In this document: one piece after another, positions 6,443 through 44,104 of the stretch
Position numbering within the stretch: the stretch's first letter is position 1
How the letters are laid out: every line of letters begins with the position of its first letter
Assembly (NCBI GenBank): GCA_964514595.1
Contig: CAZEQZ010000002.1
Span: 29,812 to 93,811 of the forward strand
Reading direction: 5' to 3'
Origin: an uncultured Candidatus Saccharibacteria bacterium
GTDB taxonomy: Bacteria; Patescibacteriota; Dojkabacteria; SC72
Length of the DNA: 64,000 bases
Position numbers and translations under genes: made by a program
The notes under the pieces: generated by a model
What the model was told of the DNA's origin: nothing
What the model saw: the letters and a program-made list of their open reading frames with translations, nothing else
Database searches by the model: none

Positions 6443-8110
6443 TTCCATTAATAACTCTCCCTGCTGCTGAGTAGCTAATCTGGGTATTAAATCCCTATCG
6501 GTATATATTGGCACAACTCTACTCTGAATATGTTTTCCATTATAGAAATAGTGTGAAAGTACAAGTCCTTGCCTTGTACCTATCCACATACTCTGATCAA
6601 AAAACAGATTACCCAATCCATAAAAAATAACACCATCACCGTATACCTCATATGTTTGAGGTTGATGTGCCTGAGTACCAACAACTATATCCGCCCCCAA
6701 ATCAACAGCCTTTCTAAACACTTCTTTCTGATCTGGATTACTAAGAGGTTTATAACAAATTGGATATATTACATCAGAAGCAGGATAACTGTAGCACTCT
6801 TGGAACTGAAATGTCACTATTACAACATCTGCCTCCTTCTTTGCCTTCTCAATATCACTCTTCATCTTACTCTCGGACCAAAAATTAGCACCAGACCTAC
6901 TCTCTCCTGCTAAAGCTAAACTTCTGTACACAGAATCATAGTAATTATAACCAAGGAAAGCTATGGTATTTCCCTTAACCTCTTCATACAGTATTTTACT
7001 TGCATCTTCATCATTTAAACCTCCACCAAAATATCTCATCCCTAAACTCGTGTACAACTCTATACTCTCTTTACTATACTGTGCTCCAAAATCATTGTTG
7101 TGATTTCCGGTTAATTCCACAATATCTACACCTGATTCTTTCAAAGCTTCAATATACTCTGGTCTAGAACAGAAACTCATTCCAGAGTATGACCTACAAC
7201 CAGGAACAAATGAAACTTCATTAGAAATATGTGTTAGATCTGCATTTGCAAGAAATTCCCCTATCTCCCTAGCAGGATATGCATTATCTCCAGAGTTATC
7301 AATCTTAATCGCTAATCCCCTAGACATTGCTACAACTCCTCCCATATTTATCTTAACCAATCTTTCTCTATTCCAATATCCATTATCTACATCTATATTC
7401 TTTGAAAGAACATTTAATATGAACTCATCTACACTCTTTTTTAACGTAGCATACAACCTTATGGAAATAGCTCCTTTTGAATCATCTAAATAGTATTTGT
7501 CATTAACCTCAAGGATCTTAACTTGATAGTCCAAATCCTTAAAATCTACTAACCCTATATTACTATCACTCTCCTTAAGCTTATTTACTAAATCCGGATA
7601 TGAATTCAATACCGAAGCATTAATACCGTATTCATCCTTCATGTACTCCCTATATACGGAATTAATAACAAAAACTGAATAACTACCCATTTCATCCTCA
7701 GTAACACTATCTAATAAAGAATACATATGCCCTACAGGAATTAGCTCTTTCCCAGACACCTCCCTTGCATCATCATTCTTTGTTCTAGAGAGCTCAATAT
7801 CAGCTCCCCCATCCTTTATTCTGAACCTCTTCTTCCCATTCAATTCCATTCCTTCCAAACTCTCTTGTATTGATTCCCTATACTCTTGAGAAATTGTATC
7901 ATCCAAAGAAACAGTATATGTATCATACCTAACGATGTTTTTTCTACTAAAAAGATACCCTATTGCTGATGTGAAATAGGTTCCTTCTGTTATCCATAGT
8001 ACGACAGGAAGAAGTATTAAAAAGAGTATAAAGGATAGTGGGAAAAGTGATTTCTTTTTAATATTTCTCTGCCTCCTAGTTGGTTGCGATATGTATATAT
8101 TCTGCCTCAT
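6419..8110 (-). CDS. capA: CapA/PgsA-family metallophosphatase-like protein (poly-gamma-glutamate capsule biosynthesis family), membrane-anchored
   Basis: N-terminal TM. PGA_cap-type motifs: LANADLTHISNEVSF, VDIVELTGNHNNDFG, VGTQAHQPQTYE and GLGNLFFDQ. Confidence 0.8.
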   Translation of the reverse strand: MRQNIYISQPTRRQRNIKKKSLFPLSFILFLILLPVVLWITEGTYFTSAIGYLFSRKNIVRYDTYTVSLDDTISQEYRESIQESLEGMELNGKKRFRIKDGGADIELSRTKNDDAREVSGKELIPVGHMYSLLDSVTEDEMGSYSVFVINSVYREYMKDEYGINASVLNSYPDLVNKLKESDSNIGLVDFKDLDYQVKILEVNDKYYLDDSKGAISIRLYATLKKSVDEFILNVLSKNIDVDNGYWNRERLVKINMGGVVAMSRGLAIKIDNSGDNAYPAREIGEFLANADLTHISNEVSFVPGCRSYSGMSFCSRPEYIEALKESGVDIVELTGNHNNDFGAQYSKESIELYTSLGMRYFGGGLNDEDASKILYEEVKGNTIAFLGYNYYDSVYRSLALAGESRSGANFWSESKMKSDIEKAKKEADVVIVTFQFQECYSYPASDVIYPICYKPLSNPDQKEVFRKAVDLGADIVVGTQAHQPQTYEVYGDGVIFYGLGNLFFDQSMWIGTRQGLVLSHYFYNGKHIQSRVVPIYTDRDLIPRLATQQQGELLMELLKGARD

Positions 8111-38969: not shown

Positions 38970-39047
38970 CAAAGGGAATAGGCGAGCGTGGAATAGATAA
39001 AAATCTTTTAGACTTCTGAAGTCTAATTATTCCACACTCACCGTTAG

Positions 39048-39121
39048 CGCTCCTGAAAGGATTCGAACCTCTATACAGTCATTCAAAGGCTGACTGGCTT
39101 TTCCATTTAAGCTACAGGAGC
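39048..39121 (-). tRNA. tRNA with an atypical 9-nt anticodon loop (GCCUUUGAA); identity unresolved (Gln-UUG or Lys-UUU), possible pseudo-tRNA
   Basis: GCTCCTG-TA-GCTT-AAATGGAA-AAGC-C-AGTCA-GCCTTTGAA-TGACT-GTAT-AGAGG-TTCGAAT-CCTTT-CAGGAGC-G. All other arms are canonical, including the T-loop TTCGAAT. Discriminator is G73. No CCA. Confidence 0.55.
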
Positions 39122-39167: not shown

Positions 39168-40271
39168 CTAAAGAGACAATCTTGGCTCCCTATCTATTTC
39201 TTTAATTTCATTTTTGTCTGTAATATATTCTTTCCTCTGTATTTTGTAATATGCAACTATCCCAACCATTCCTGCATTATCTCCTCTGTATTCTTTTTTA
39301 GGATATATATATTCCAAACCGTATGATCTAGCAATATTGCCTATAAATCTGACCATTTCCTCACTGTTAAATACCCCACCTCCCACAAATATAGCTTTTA
39401 TTTCAGGATACTGTTCTATAGCCATATCTAATTTTATTTTAATAGACTCATTCACAGCGTCCAAAAATCCTCTACAGAAATCATATATCCATTCTTTCTC
39501 TGGCTTCCCTTCCTCTCTTAGTTCCTTAACCTTATACAGTGCTGCTGTTTTCAAACCCGAATAGCTAAAGTTAAGATCTTTGGAATTCTTCATTGGTATA
39601 GGGAAGACAATTTCCCCTGATTTTCCTTTCTTTGCAAATTCGGTAATTACAGGACCACCTGGATATCCCAAATTCAACATCCTCGCAACCTTATCAAATG
39701 CCTCGCCCACTGCATCATCCAATGTCTCCCCAAGTTTCTTGTACTCCCCAGTCTGTTGAACATGTACCAGCTCAGTGTGCTTACCAGATACCAAAAGACC
39801 AATGGCCGGAAATAGGGACAGACCCTGGTACGACCCCTGTGGTTTCAAAATATTATCGCTATGCAATTTCTTCTGGTCCAGGGACAGACCAGGGTCAGAC
39901 CCCAGAAAACCTGAGAGTAAGTGCCCTTCCATATGGTTTATAGGTACAAATGGAAGACCATTTTCAATTGCCAAATCCTTAGCAAAGTTCAAACCTATCT
40001 CCAGATCAATCGCTAACCCTGGACCATACGTACATGCTATATAATCAACATCCTCGATTTTAACCTTTGCTCTCTTAAGTGCCTTCTCATATACGATTGG
40101 TATGTTTTTTTCATGCTCTCTCCTGGCTATATCTGGCACTACTCCACCCCACTGAGCATGTATTTCCACCTGAGAGGATACCTCAGAAGAAAGGATCTTA
40201 TTCCCTCTTAAGACTGCTACAGATGTATCATCACAACTTGTATCTATTGCTAATATTAGTAGGTTATTCAT
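39168..40271 (-). CDS. tsaD: tRNA N6-adenosine threonylcarbamoyltransferase TsaD (Kae1/Gcp family), carrying a ~25-aa in-frame insertion
   Basis: ILAIDTSCDDTSVAVL, HMEGHLLSGF and LLVSGKHTELVHV. Between the HMEGH region and LLVSG lies an extra segment GSDPGLSLDQKKLHSDNILKPQGSYQGLSLFP. It is encoded by GC-rich repeat DNA. Confidence 0.9.
   Translation of the reverse strand: MNNLLILAIDTSCDDTSVAVLRGNKILSSEVSSQVEIHAQWGGVVPDIARREHEKNIPIVYEKALKRAKVKIEDVDYIACTYGPGLAIDLEIGLNFAKDLAIENGLPFVPINHMEGHLLSGFLGSDPGLSLDQKKLHSDNILKPQGSYQGLSLFPAIGLLVSGKHTELVHVQQTGEYKKLGETLDDAVGEAFDKVARMLNLGYPGGPVITEFAKKGKSGEIVFPIPMKNSKDLNFSYSGLKTAALYKVKELREEGKPEKEWIYDFCRGFLDAVNESIKIKLDMAIEQYPEIKAIFVGGGVFNSEEMVRFIGNIARSYGLEYIYPKKEYRGDNAGMVGIVAYYKIQRKEYITDKNEIKEIDREPRLSL
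39815..39903. repeat. three copies of the GGGACAGACC/GGGTCAGACCC palindromic repeat inside the tsaD coding region
   Basis: GGGACAGACCCTGG (39815), GGGACAGACCAGGG (39881) and GGGTCAGACCCCAG (39893). The 23-mer GGGACAGACCAGGGTCAGACCCC matches the copy upstream of eno. It is translated as PGLSL/QGLSL in tsaD. Confidence 0.5.
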
Positions 40272-41343
40272 ATATCTCTATGCTCCTCTCATTAAGTGAT
40301 ACATACTTAATATTTACCTTGTATATGGGAATATTCATATTGTCACACAGTGCAGATATCTCTTGGTAGAATTTATCTGCCCACTCTATCAATACAATGT
40401 TTCCACTCTCTAAATGTTGGATTAATCCTGAGGTCTCTAATTCATGATCCTCTAATTTCCATGTATCCATATGTGCGAGGATCTGTCCCTTGTTATATGT
40501 ATATTCATTAATTATGGTATATGTCGGTGAATTTACGATTTCTTTAACTCCAAGTTGTTCAGCTACTCCTTTTGCAAATTGTGTTTTTCCTGCTCCTAGT
40601 TCTCCACTTAGTGCTACTACAACCGGGATATCTTCTGACAGATATTTTTTAGCAAATTCTTTTGCTAAATCAATAGTTTCTTGGGTTGTTTTTGTATTCC
40701 TTTCTTCCACCTTTTTATTTTTAATTAAGGCATTTTCAAATTGAAGCTTACCCTGCCTTAGGATACTTAATTGGTTCATTGTGGTGTCTAATACTGTAGA
40801 GGGTTGATTTTTAGGTAGTTGGCCCGCATCTAGGAAAAGATCTATCAGTTTAAAACTTTTCTTAGGAAGATCTTTCATTAACTGATCTATGTTGTATGGA
40901 GGTGATTTGTATGACACATTAGCTGATGTTGCTGTTATCGGTTTCCCGAATTGTTTAATTAATTCTAATGTAAATTCATAATCTGGATATCTTACTCCCA
41001 CAGCTCCCTGTATGGATACTACTGGAGGAACTAGATTACCCTTACTCATTGATATTACAGTTATTGGTCCAGGGAGATAGTTTTTGTATATGTTGTCTGC
41101 CATTTCATTAATCTCTACATACTCCTCTGCCATCTTCCTGTCTGCTACAGCTATGGATATGGGTTTGGATCCTCTGAGTGTTTTATATTCCATTATCTTT
41201 TCCAATGCTTTTGGATTAGTTGCATCTCCTCCTAGTCCATAGCAAGTTTCTGTCGGGTATACAATTAATCCACCGTTTTTTAATGTTTCAACGGCTTTTT
41301 TTATAGCAAGATCTTTATCTTTTTTAATATCAATTCTGTTCAT
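40264..41343 (-). CDS. tsaC-tsaE: fused L-threonylcarbamoyladenylate synthase (TsaC/Sua5/YrdC domain) and TsaE (YjeE P-loop ATPase)
   Basis: N-terminal YrdC-type fold (VYPTETCYGLGGDATNPKALEKI...). The C-terminal ~140 aa carry the TsaE Walker A ALSGELGAGKTQFAKGVAEQLGV, then SPTYTIINEY and IEWADKF. Confidence 0.8.
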   Translation of the reverse strand: MNRIDIKKDKDLAIKKAVETLKNGGLIVYPTETCYGLGGDATNPKALEKIMEYKTLRGSKPISIAVADRKMAEEYVEINEMADNIYKNYLPGPITVISMSKGNLVPPVVSIQGAVGVRYPDYEFTLELIKQFGKPITATSANVSYKSPPYNIDQLMKDLPKKSFKLIDLFLDAGQLPKNQPSTVLDTTMNQLSILRQGKLQFENALIKNKKVEERNTKTTQETIDLAKEFAKKYLSEDIPVVVALSGELGAGKTQFAKGVAEQLGVKEIVNSPTYTIINEYTYNKGQILAHMDTWKLEDHELETSGLIQHLESGNIVLIEWADKFYQEISALCDNMNIPIYKVNIKYVSLNERSIEIYE

Positions 41344-41419
41344 GGTATAATGTATATTATACTAGGAATATATGTAAATGCCCATATTCCAATACTTTTA
41401 AATTGTTAACATATATATT

Positions 41420-41740
41420 ATGCCATTACTACATTTAACTGACGAGAATTTTCAAGAAGAAATTAAGAATTATGAAGGAGTTGCTTTAGTAGATTTTTGG
41501 GCACCATGGTGTGGTCCTTGTCAGATGGTTGGACCATCTATTGAGGAATTAGCTACAGAGATGGAGGGGAAGGCTAAGGTTGGGAAAATTAATGTTGACG
41601 AAGAAGCTACTACGGCACAAGAGTACTACATAATGAGCATACCTGCGGTGTATGTATTCAAGAATGGAGAAGTTGTTGAGAAGCTGATTGGAGCTATGGA
41701 CAAGAATAGCTACAAAGAAGCTATTGAGAAGAATTTATAG
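41420..41740 (+). CDS. trxA: thioredoxin
   Basis: WAPWCGPCQM active site. 106 aa. Confidence 0.9.
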   Translation: MPLLHLTDENFQEEIKNYEGVALVDFWAPWCGPCQMVGPSIEELATEMEGKAKVGKINVDEEATTAQEYYIMSIPAVYVFKNGEVVEKLIGAMDKNSYKEAIEKNL

Positions 41741-42611
41741 TTTCTCTCTGTATAATGGTTGGATTAATTCCTTCCTTTTGTTGATTCTTTGAAGCTTCTT
41801 TTGCCTCATACATTAATTGATCAGCTTCATTGAATTTTCTTCTTAATATGTCTCGAACTAATTTTGTTCTTTCCTTAATATCTATACCTGTTCGACTCCC
41901 CAATTCTTGAAGTATGGAGTTCACGCTAAAACCTAATATGCCTGCACTATAGTTAAGATTAGATGTTTGTGTTTCATTTAAACGATCTACTATGGTATCC
42001 GTTATGTCTTCGTTTGATACTGTGAATACAGAGAATTCATCTCCGCCCCACCTAGCTATTTCATCATACGATCTGAATACATTTTTAAGATATTGGGCCA
42101 TTTGGAGTATGTATTCATCACCAATACTATGACCTTGTTCATCATTTATCTTCTTAAGATTATTTAAATCAAATACCCCAAAAGTTATGTATCTATCATT
42201 CATTTCTTCCCTTTGTATCATATCTGCTAATTTCTCAATAGCTATATTCCATCCCAATCTATTATCTACCTCTGTCAATGGATCTACTGTCATACTATTT
42301 TGAAGATCAATCACCCTATCTATCTCCCTACTAAAGTATAGGTTCAGAGGGGTGCCCTGTTTGTTGAAGGATACTCTTGCTCCCTTGAAGTCTTCTTGCT
42401 CTAATGGAATATATGTAATTAATTCTTCTGGATTTTCTGTTTCCTTGATCTGATTAGATTTTCTTTGAATATTTTCTAGCTGTTCTTCAGGTATGTATCT
42501 TGGATCATACTCAACATAGTAGATTTTTTCTCCAGAGGGATCTGTAGCGGAGTACATCATATTAGTTGGTATTTTTTCTGTAGTGGTGTCGTTGGATAGT
42601 TCTATGTTCAT
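41721..42611 (-). CDS. GGDEF-domain protein (diguanylate cyclase)
   Basis: RYITFGVFDLNNLKKINDEQGHSIGDEYI ... RWGGDEFSVFT with an intact GGDEF motif. Confidence 0.8.
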   Translation of the reverse strand: MNIELSNDTTTEKIPTNMMYSATDPSGEKIYYVEYDPRYIPEEQLENIQRKSNQIKETENPEELITYIPLEQEDFKGARVSFNKQGTPLNLYFSREIDRVIDLQNSMTVDPLTEVDNRLGWNIAIEKLADMIQREEMNDRYITFGVFDLNNLKKINDEQGHSIGDEYILQMAQYLKNVFRSYDEIARWGGDEFSVFTVSNEDITDTIVDRLNETQTSNLNYSAGILGFSVNSILQELGSRTGIDIKERTKLVRDILRRKFNEADQLMYEAKEASKNQQKEGINPTIIQRETINSSQ

Positions 42612-43495: not shown

Positions 43496-44104
43496 ATGAT
43501 AAAAAAGAAGGAACTAATACTTCAGGATTTCGAAAAATATCCCAAACAATATACCTGGGAACTTAGTACAAATACAAAAGAAGAATTACTTCTCCGTCCA
43601 TTACTTCATTCTGATATTGGGAAACTAACATCTTTTTTAGAGAATCTTTCAATTGAAACAAGAAGACTAAGCACTTTCGATAGTTATGACAAAGTAACTG
43701 CAAAAGAATTATGCAATGCTATAAGTAAGTATGATAAATTACGCTTTGTTTTAGAGAATCAAAACAAAGAAATAGTTGGTTTGATAGAATTTACACTGGA
43801 TATACCTCAGAATATAATAGATAAATACACAACCTATGGCATTACCCTAGATACCAAATACACATGTAGATTTGGCCCTACTTTGGCAGATGAATATCAA
43901 AGCAAAGGATTAGGAAATCTAATATTCCCTTATGTATTAAAAATAGCAGAATTGTTGGGAAGGAAACACATCATACTCTATGGAGGAGTTCTTGCAGACA
44001 ATACTAGGGCAATAAATTACTATCAAAAACATGGATTTAAGATTGCGGGGAAGTTTTATAATGATAATGGAGTTGAAAATCTTGATATGATATTCTCTAT
44101 TTAA
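43496..44104 (+). CDS. GNAT-family N-acetyltransferase
   Basis: The C-terminal half, ...YQSKGLGNLIFPYVLKIAELLGRKHIILYGGVLADNTRAINYYQKHGFKIAG, matches the GNAT motif A/B region. Confidence 0.6.
   Translation: MIKKKELILQDFEKYPKQYTWELSTNTKEELLLRPLLHSDIGKLTSFLENLSIETRRLSTFDSYDKVTAKELCNAISKYDKLRFVLENQNKEIVGLIEFTLDIPQNIIDKYTTYGITLDTKYTCRFGPTLADEYQSKGLGNLIFPYVLKIAELLGRKHIILYGGVLADNTRAINYYQKHGFKIAGKFYNDNGVENLDMIFSI

Follow-up and report, generated by a model that had tools for sequence, protein, structure and literature searches.

Does joining TsaC and TsaE in one polypeptide bring together the two halves of the bacterial pathway to N6-threonylcarbamoyladenosine (t6A) in tRNA? The question is raised by a minus-strand gene in a 64,000-nucleotide stretch (the window) of contig CAZEQZ010000002.1, from a genome titled uncultured Candidatus Saccharibacteria bacterium and placed by GTDB in Dojkabacteria, where a single reading frame encodes a TsaC-type domain followed by a TsaE-type domain and runs into the start of tsaD. 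The intermediate that passes between these proteins, threonylcarbamoyl-AMP (TC-AMP), is unstable; TsaB2D2 with TsaC2 carries out one turnover, and the TsaE ATPase is needed for multiple turnovers (PMC5814804). The route by which TC-AMP reaches TsaD from TsaC, and any function of TsaE other than the reset, are open questions (PMC6614819, PMC5814804), and Luthra et al. describe the role of TsaC2 in the reset step as unclear (PMC6614819). We find that the fusion is genuine and a trait of the whole class Dojkabacteria, and we consider it fairly likely that its product is a bifunctional t6A-pathway protein, with TsaC activity predicted for the N-terminal half and TsaE activity for the C-terminal half.

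Both domains can be identified because each half scores above curated hidden Markov model cut-offs, keeps the motifs of its family, and matches its fold. PF01300 (Sua5_yciO_yrdC) aligns with residues 20 to 198 over profile positions 2 to 178 of 178 (E = 1.1e-45, 155.7 bits, cut-off 25.1), and PF02367 (TsaE) aligns with residues 218 to 340 (E = 3e-29, 102 bits, cut-off 26.6). The corresponding NCBIfam equivalogs agree, with TIGR00057 (L-threonylcarbamoyladenylate synthase) covering residues 8 to 201 at 168.3 bits (cut-off 123.2) and TIGR00150 (T6A_YjeE) matching the C-terminal half at 94.4 bits (cut-off 60.1). The initial annotation, made from the sequence alone, had read the product as a TsaC/Sua5/YrdC-type N terminus joined to a TsaE module, and these results bear it out; the TsaE motifs that it quoted (GELGAGKTQF, SPTYTIINEY, and IEWADKF) are all present in the translation. 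Its first doubt, that the C-terminal half might belong to a different P-loop family, can be dismissed, as only TsaE models pass and the next best, Cytidylate_kin2, reaches 16.8 bits against a cut-off of 28. The match to both domains, together with the overlap with tsaD, lies far beyond chance.

The best solved relatives of the TsaC half are Thermotoga maritima TsaC2 (117 bits), MTH1692, and archaeal Sua5, with Escherichia coli TsaC at 50 bits; among solved structures, no Protein Data Bank chain covers both halves of the fusion. Among 120 close homologues and in an alignment of 40 sequences, TETCYG, PGPITV, TSAN-S, PSTVLDTT, and LRQG (LR-G) are invariant or nearly so, and the substrate and nucleotide motifs T31-E-T-C-Y-G36, P91-G-P-I-T95, and S140-A-N142 are invariant in the family. 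Foldseek matched the modeled TsaC domain to T. maritima TsaC2 (E of about 1e-13, root mean square deviation of about 3 Å, 176 columns), with further matches to E. coli YrdC and YciO, which supports a YrdC-type fold, an alpha/beta twisted open sheet. The TsaC half is thus predicted to make TC-AMP from threonine, HCO3-/CO2, and ATP.

The TsaE half aligns with Bacillus subtilis YdiB, Haemophilus influenzae HI0065, and T. maritima TsaE, P-loops included, and its modeled fold gave target-normalized Foldseek TM scores of 0.72 to YdiB (5np9), 0.71 to T. maritima TsaE (6n9a_E), and 0.71 to HI0065 (1htw). Across 40 aligned members, G247ELGAGKT254, S272PTYT276, H291MDTW295-K/R, and I319-E320-W321 are invariant or nearly so, corresponding in that order to Walker A (GxxGxGKT), the loop SPT(F/Y)T, a switch of the HxDxYR type, and (I/V)EW. 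In T. maritima TsaE the P-loop is G38AGKTT, and in the TsaBDE structure the SPT(F/Y)T peptide enters the TsaD active site and contacts the gamma-phosphate of ATP, which itself touches TsaD (PMC6009658). The (I/V)EW residues are Glu108 and Trp109 in E. coli numbering (motif roles from PMC6009658 and PMC4330362). With this set of motifs in place, the TsaE half would be the ATPase that resets TsaD.

One alternative is that the TsaE domain instead acts in cis on TsaC, taking the position of the SUA5 domain and gating or regulating TC-AMP synthesis without any part in TsaD reset. It does stand where SUA5 follows in TsaC2 and Sua5, and the bit scores given above make the N-terminal half most like the catalytic domains of these two-domain proteins. 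However, single-domain MTH1692 scores almost equally, a Pfam scan of the fusion protein gave no signal for SUA5 (PF03481), the residues that contact TsaD and the shared ATP (SPTYT, E320-W321 of IEW, and Walker A) are invariant, and tsaD appears to be translationally coupled to the fusion. A purely regulatory role in cis is, in our judgment, very improbable.

The fused gene could also be an artefact or a pseudogene, with two genes joined by a frameshift or a misassembly, or with a C-terminal half from another P-loop family. We found no point in favor of this. Independent ENA, JGI, and Logan assemblies contain 14 contigs that encode exactly this protein, and a survey of relatives, one genome per species, found relatives of the fusion encoded in at least 567 GTDB species genomes; in all 80 of the best of these, which were analyzed in detail (45 to 88% identity to the window protein), the TsaC and TsaE matches fall within one uninterrupted open reading frame (ORF). 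The second doubt of the initial annotation, that a frameshift hides two separate genes, is therefore rejected, and with the TsaE equivalog above its cut-off, Cytidylate_kin2 far below its own, and a TsaE fold, an artefact or pseudogene has next to no credibility.

The family is both large and divergent. An exhaustive search of 1.84 billion cluster representatives returned 288 hits at an E value of 1e-30 or below, and more than 100 clusters (50% identity) align in one stretch over both domains, down to 32% identity. All of the 120 best database homologues (67 to 97% identity, 353 to 376 amino acids) carry PF01300 and PF02367, and the hosts named among them are Candidatus Dojkabacteria or candidate division WS6. 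A member at 41% identity is found in WS6 bacterium OLB21 and on a 1.17-Mb Dojkabacteria chromosome, and one at 36% identity lies on a 0.94-Mb chromosome. Long members (415 to 483 amino acids) were considered as carriers of an extra domain such as TsaB, a candidate that was rejected, as they contain insertions only. Record titles among the best 80 species genomes read Dojkabacteria or WS6 in 35 cases and "uncultured Candidatus Saccharibacteria" in 29, with the rest generic or odd. The 29 Saccharibacteria-titled genomes all come from one TPA (third-party) assembly series, and single genomes are titled archaeon, Gammaproteobacteria, or Nealsonbacteria (loci L024 to L102). Fusions from the oddly titled genomes are 45 to 86% identical to the window protein and interleave with those labeled Dojkabacteria, and the titles are probably coarse or wrong labels.

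In these genomes the fusion travels with tsaD. The window TsaD is of the classical bacterial type, scoring 335 bits on TIGR03723 (cut-off 296.1) and about 220 bits to the TsaD proteins of E. coli, Salmonella, and T. maritima versus about 98 bits to Qri7, with the HMEGH motif of its His-His-Asp metal site intact and the C-terminal DN(A/G)(A/G)M present. At the junction the minus-strand sequence is ...GAG ATA TAT GAA TAA, with the tsaD ATG inside it as ATGAATAA. In relatives the junction is an overlap of 8 to 11 nt or a gap of 1 nt. Of the 77 loci from the 80 best genomes with sufficient sequence past the fusion, 72 have tsaD downstream, on the same strand and no more than 800 nt away; for the most divergent family member the distance is about 5 kb. 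Since the flanking genes differ in every lineage examined, the fusion and tsaD form a conserved unit, and from this arrangement the two are predicted to be co-transcribed and translationally coupled.

The join between the two domains is also conserved in length. Conservation drops between LRQG, which ends at residue 198, and the first TsaE strand, placed at residues 211 to 217 by the model. Across 279 family proteins the median spacer between LRxG and Walker A is 48 residues, most spacers fall between 41 and 51, and only two proteins carry long insertions (89 and 133 residues). As N-terminal TsaE domains have 31 to 36 residues before Walker A, the real tether would be about 12 to 16 residues long. 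That the tether is short and keeps its length argues that the geometry of the join is constrained, and against a flexible linkage made by accident.

What such a tether could do depends on where TsaE acts. TsaE occupies the entrance to the pocket of TsaD, where it competes with tRNA (PMC6009658), and in T. maritima a TsaE-TsaC2 heterocomplex whose role is unknown forms even when TsaB or TsaD is present (PMC5814804). Missoury et al. have proposed that the "open" TsaBD bound by TsaE accepts TC-AMP from TsaC2 and that ATP hydrolysis then frees TsaE (PMC6009658). Because TsaE has to act where the active site of TsaD opens, so short a tether would bring TsaC there at the same moment. In the sequence of events that we propose, the ATP-loaded TsaE domain would dock on TsaD and open it, the tethered TsaC would pass fresh TC-AMP to TsaD, ATP hydrolysis would free the TsaC-TsaE protein, and tRNA would then bind and be threonylcarbamoylated at A37. 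The fusion would turn an otherwise transient meeting of TsaC, TsaE, and TsaD into an obligatory one and most plausibly ties the loading of TC-AMP to the reset, through a hand-off that would take place at the TsaD active site. Like the initial annotation, we infer a physical coupling of the two pathway halves by the fusion, a view strengthened by the short, length-constrained tether, by independent fusions of the reverse order in other members of the candidate phyla radiation (CPR), and by the T. maritima TsaE-TsaC2 complex (PMC5814804).

Several observations weigh against this coupling. [quoted passage not shown] When TobZ is superposed, its TsaC-like module and TsaE lie on opposite sides of the TsaD-like module (PMC6009658), which argues against a TobZ-like tunnel in the Dojkabacteria fusion. 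An AlphaFold2 model of the fusion has two well-formed domains (mean predicted local distance difference test score [pLDDT] of 82), but with a predicted template modeling score of 0.51 and a pLDDT below 50 for residues 182 to 198 it predicts no fixed TsaC-TsaE interface; so low a score gives no trustworthy domain orientation, and we therefore build no docking argument on the model. Within the TsaC half, the K-x-R motif reads K54-T-L-R57, with a spacing or register that differs from that of Sua5, TsaC2, and MTH1692; in ungapped alignments to these three, L56 occupies the position of the canonical Arg. The residues around it (Y53, K54, R57, G58, S59, K60, and P61) are invariant or nearly so across the fusion family. 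At position 55, 88% of members have K (K-K-L-R being commonest) and the window protein has T, so that it is without the Lys55 needed to bring K-x-R back into canonical register with R57. No TsaB, a normal requirement of TsaE, was found around the fusion. Finally, CPR genomes fuse adjacent t6A genes in several combinations, and streamlining could suffice to explain the join.

If streamlining were the whole explanation, the fusion would be a neutral by-product of CPR gene compaction, giving 1:1 co-expression of two domains that work independently and gain nothing from a hand-off. The results from E. coli and from single turnovers fit this account, as do the gene overlaps that are common in the window (34% G+C, with densely packed genes) and a general tendency among related CPR bacteria to fuse t6A neighbors, as TsaE-TsaC, as TsaC with a shortened TsaB, and as all three. 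These other fusions, however, also supply evidence on the opposite side. TsaE-TsaC proteins of the reverse order form about 40 clusters of 323 to 372 amino acids (P0260, P0301 to P0311, and others; L017:6001-7026); in P0260, TsaE spans residues 6 to 141 and TsaC residues 155 to 330. The TsaC halves of this family are 60 to 65% identical to unfused TsaC from Microgenomates and Gottesmanbacteria, whereas the Dojkabacteria TsaC half is 47 to 52% identical to unfused TsaCs versus about 35% to the TsaC half of the reverse fusion. Being closer to unfused TsaCs than to the TsaE-TsaC proteins, the Dojkabacteria fusion indicates that the two orders arose independently, and the joining of the same two domains twice, in both orders, is a Rosetta-stone signal of functional and physical coupling between TsaC and TsaE. 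A by-product of compaction also fits poorly with a tether that is short and keeps its length over divergence down to about 32% identity. The nearest unfused TsaC genes that we examined stand alone rather than beside tsaE, so that simple loss of a stop codon is not evident; adjacent tsaC and tsaE genes were sought in these lineages as a precursor of the fusion and not found. Whatever its origin, a covalent tether to a domain that docks on TsaD raises the local concentration of TsaC. Neutral streamlining is a rival to be taken seriously, but one that we doubt, and we retain coupling at the TsaD active site as the preferred reading.

The other CPR fusions also show what has become of TsaB in these lineages. 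Proteins of about 290 to 306 residues join TsaC to the first 90 or so positions of the TsaB model (TIGR03725 1-90/212), and one protein of 446 residues (P0312) is a triple fusion of TsaE, TsaC, and this mini-TsaB. The unfused TsaCs closest to the TsaE-TsaC and TsaC-mini-TsaB proteins are labeled Gottesmanbacteria, Microgenomates, and Patescibacteria group. A gene string of tsaE, tsaC, and mini-tsaB is conserved, without an adjacent tsaD in the two contexts seen: locus L017 encodes a free mini-TsaB of 104 residues (7023-7337), and L018 (6001-6888) and L019 (1886-2773) encode TsaC-mini-TsaB fusions, beside genes for a free TsaE and a GNAT protein. Free mini-TsaB, part of a very large family encoded by many CPR bacteria, corresponds to the N-terminal half of TsaB, with 99 to 116 residues and more than 7,000 clusters at an E value of 1e-5 or below. 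Some sources already name such proteins TsaB, and a literature search found no paper describing a TsaB truncation of about 100 residues. The TsaE-TsaC genes follow a prfB-ftsE-ftsX-M23 peptidase cluster; in the Dojkabacteria genome the same cluster lies upstream of the window (L007), with no t6A genes after it. The reverse-order, TsaC-mini-TsaB, and triple fusions (P0260, P0311, P0389, and P0312) resemble the Dojkabacteria fusion in their domains, their short linkers, and their small-genome CPR hosts, and both groups follow one trend in which accessory t6A proteins are welded to TsaC. They differ in that the reverse-order proteins place TsaE first and have no adjacent tsaD in the two contexts seen, while the Dojkabacteria protein places TsaC first and is linked to tsaD.

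TsaB itself was searched for with three probes: the window TsaD, E. coli YeaZ (validated by its score of 229.9 bits on TIGR03725), and a profile of CPR mini-TsaB. The window holds neither TsaB nor mini-TsaB by any of them, all three matching TsaD only, in keeping with the initial annotation, which saw no tsaB there and was equally right about the 8-nt overlap with the start of tsaD. None was found in an upstream extension of the window by 10 kb, in an initial set of loci totaling about 0.35 Mb (including the window and some non-Dojkabacteria loci), or in 0.96 Mb from the 80 species genomes (fusion locus only). The total comes to about 1.2 Mb from more than 80 Dojkabacteria genomes, some 20 kb or 2 to 3% of each, always at the fusion locus. 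As positive controls, the profile recovered mini-TsaB in the other CPR loci (L017 to L019) at E values of 1e-37 to 1e-48, and the E. coli TsaB probe did so at 3e-9 to 7e-11, so the local negative is real. A 225-residue gene beside the most divergent fusion gave no match to the TsaB probes and is pilin-like by eye only (hydrophobic N terminus), and a protein-database search with the mini-TsaB profile gave only proteins of 99 to 116 residues among the matches listed.

Whether the partner of the Dojkabacteria TsaD is TsaB, a mini-TsaB, or none at all is something that we infer from known behavior of TsaE. TsaE binds only the asymmetric TsaB-TsaD heterodimer (PMC6009658), and TsaE without TsaB has been reported in no bacterium; TsaE is lost first, and both are lost in two Mycoplasma species only (PMC4615747). 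This favors a tsaB or mini-tsaB elsewhere in the genome, which we think the likelier situation. The alternative is a t6A system of two polypeptides, TsaD and TsaC-TsaE, in which the fused protein with its attached TsaC, or a TsaD homodimer, would replace the TsaB platform; TsaD would receive its TC-AMP while TsaE is docked, and TsaB would be absent altogether. Such a system would agree with the absence of TsaB from the window, the adjoining 10 kb, and the fusion loci to probes that work elsewhere, with the reduction of TsaB in neighboring CPR lineages to its N-terminal 100 or so residues, and with the contrast between those lineages, which link or fuse mini-tsaB tightly to tsaC and tsaE, and Dojkabacteria, which link the fusion to tsaD instead. 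It is countered by the small, always identical part of each genome that the search covered, by the lack of any reported bacterium with TsaE and no TsaB (PMC4615747), and by a window TsaD that is classical rather than Qri7-like, and we consider it unlikely. If true, it would be a third bacterial solution beside TsaBCDE and the Qri7-like TsaD-only system.

Comparison with known systems helps to place the fusion that couples TsaC to TsaE. Its domains and motifs are those of the separate proteins of E. coli (YrdC and YjeE) and T. maritima, its neighbor gene encodes the partner that they share, TsaD, and the T. maritima TsaE-TsaC2 complex (PMC5814804) is its non-covalent counterpart. It differs from separate TsaC or TsaC2 and TsaE in being one polypeptide with a putative tether of about 12 to 16 residues, in having no SUA5 domain and a shifted K-x-R, and in that TsaB was not found nearby. 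TsaC2 and Sua5 (9d3h/9dg5, 6f87, and 2eqa), the closest solved relatives of the N-terminal half, share the plan of two domains with the TsaC catalytic domain first, but their C-terminal domain is a Rossmann-like SUA5 where the fusion has a TsaE P-loop ATPase. TobZ, HypF, and Pandoravirus TsaN are comparable in that an adenylate-forming module, YrdC- or TsaC-like, is tied to the transfer machinery in the form of a fused Kae1- or TsaD-like domain, and TobZ and HypF channel a labile (threonyl)carbamoyl-adenylate (PMC9654439, PMC10484737). These proteins join TsaC to the transferase itself, whereas Dojkabacteria join it to the accessory ATPase and keep TsaD as a separate ORF. With no Kae1 domain in the chain, the fusion is not a member of the TobZ/HypF class of channeling carbamoyltransferases, whose YrdC-like and Kae1-like domains enclose a tunnel within one chain, although its purpose may be analogous. 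Archaeal Kae1-Bud32 and Mycoplasma genitalium MG259 (TsaC/HemK) are also fusions of t6A proteins with different partners, the first joining the transferase to a kinase/ATPase and the second TsaC to an unrelated methyltransferase (PMC4615747). The fusions listed in t6A reviews and in the TsaN paper are TsaC/HemK, Kae1-Bud32, HypF, TobZ (YrdC plus Kae1), and TsaN (TsaD-TsaC-SUA5-TcdA), and TsaC-TsaE is not among them (PMC4615747, PMC9654439, PMC10484737). A full-text literature search likewise found no description of a TsaC-TsaE fusion or of t6A genes in CPR/Patescibacteria. In public databases the fusion proteins are named only "L-threonylcarbamoyladenylate synthase," and with the TsaE half unnamed, tsaE seems to be missing from these genomes.

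The coordinates of the locus are collected in Table 1. The count of promoter-like sites near the fusion is not above the shuffled expectation, and position is the only argument for the one listed.

Table 1. Features of the fusion locus, in positions of the window
Feature	Coordinates	Strand	Details
tsaC-tsaE fusion gene	40264..41343	-	359-aa single ORF, ATG start, stop included
TsaC / Sua5-type L-threonylcarbamoyladenylate synthase domain	40741..41322	-	aa 8-201; Pfam aa 20-198
TsaC K-x-R motif variant K54-T55-L56-R57	41173..41184	-	alignments and family conservation
Inter-domain tether, poorly conserved	40711..40749	-	about aa 199-211
TsaE (YjeE) P-loop ATPase domain	40324..40710	-	aa ~212-340; Pfam aa 218-340
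TsaE Walker A G247-ELGAGK-T254	40582..40605	-	read directly in the sequence
TsaE S272-P-T-Y-T276 loop	40513..40527	-	family-invariant
8-nt overlap ATGAATAA, tsaD start codon / fusion stop codon	40264..40271	-	read from the sequence
tsaD, bacterial-type transferase, 367 aa	39168..40271	-	directly after the fusion, same strand
Promoter-like TGGGCA-17-TATAAT, just upstream of the fusion ATG	41356..41384	-	consensus scan, 10/12 matches; weak

The neighborhood of the pair has features of its own. Compared with E. coli and Salmonella TsaD, the window TsaD has an insertion of 26 residues right after HMEGH (residues 128 to 153; 39813-39890, minus strand). All Dojkabacteria TsaDs examined have 9 to 12 extra residues there, and the 26-residue version is specific to the lineage of the window; as a sign of co-adaptation to the fusion, the insertion was set aside as too weak to use. 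In place of the SGGHT motif, TsaD of the window and of close relatives has SGKHT. A GGDEF-domain gene (41721-42611, minus strand) lies shortly upstream of the fusion and is read in the same direction. Relatives at 67% identity (L003 and L005) have it immediately before the fusion; in the window the two are separated by a plus-strand thioredoxin gene (41420-41740), which shares 20 nt with the 3' end of the GGDEF gene. A GNAT acetyltransferase gene (43496-44104, plus strand) about 2 kb from the t6A genes has a weak likeness to RimI (TIGR01575, 25 bits, far below the cut-off), and a GNAT gene also adjoins tsaE in L018 and L019. The rimI gene is a classical operon partner of tsaB and tsaE.

About 46 nt downstream of tsaD lies an abnormal tRNA gene (39047-39121, minus strand) with a 9-nt anticodon loop, GCCUUUGAA. 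ARAGORN names it tRNA-Lys(UUU), and the Rfam tRNA model, which scores it lowest among the tRNAs of the window (49.4 bits), needs a 2-nt insertion and would read UUG. In other Dojkabacteria (L062:12179-12253, L063:2861-2935, and L069:7374-7448) the place after tsaD is taken by a tRNA whose anticodon is UUA (ochre-suppressor type), by a close homologue that has CUA instead (amber type), and by a homologue whose loop is only 6 nt long. The use of stop codons in these loci looks normal, TAA still being the commonest terminator, so genome-wide recoding is not indicated.

A class-wide fusion with a short tether, an operon with tsaD, and an independent mirror-image fusion in other CPR bacteria together form the best case that comparative genomics has yet provided for joint action of TsaC and TsaE at the TsaD active site, and they fit the model in which the TsaE-bound open state accepts TC-AMP. 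A single-chain TsaC-TsaE protein combined with TsaD should trap the transient hand-off complex for cryo-electron microscopy or crystallography. A mini-TsaB of about 100 residues in CPR bacteria, and perhaps no TsaB in Dojkabacteria, helps to define the minimal bacterial t6A machinery. Taken together, the TsaC-TsaE fusion, its TsaE-TsaC mirror image, the triple fusion, and mini-TsaB make the hand-off of TC-AMP directly testable.

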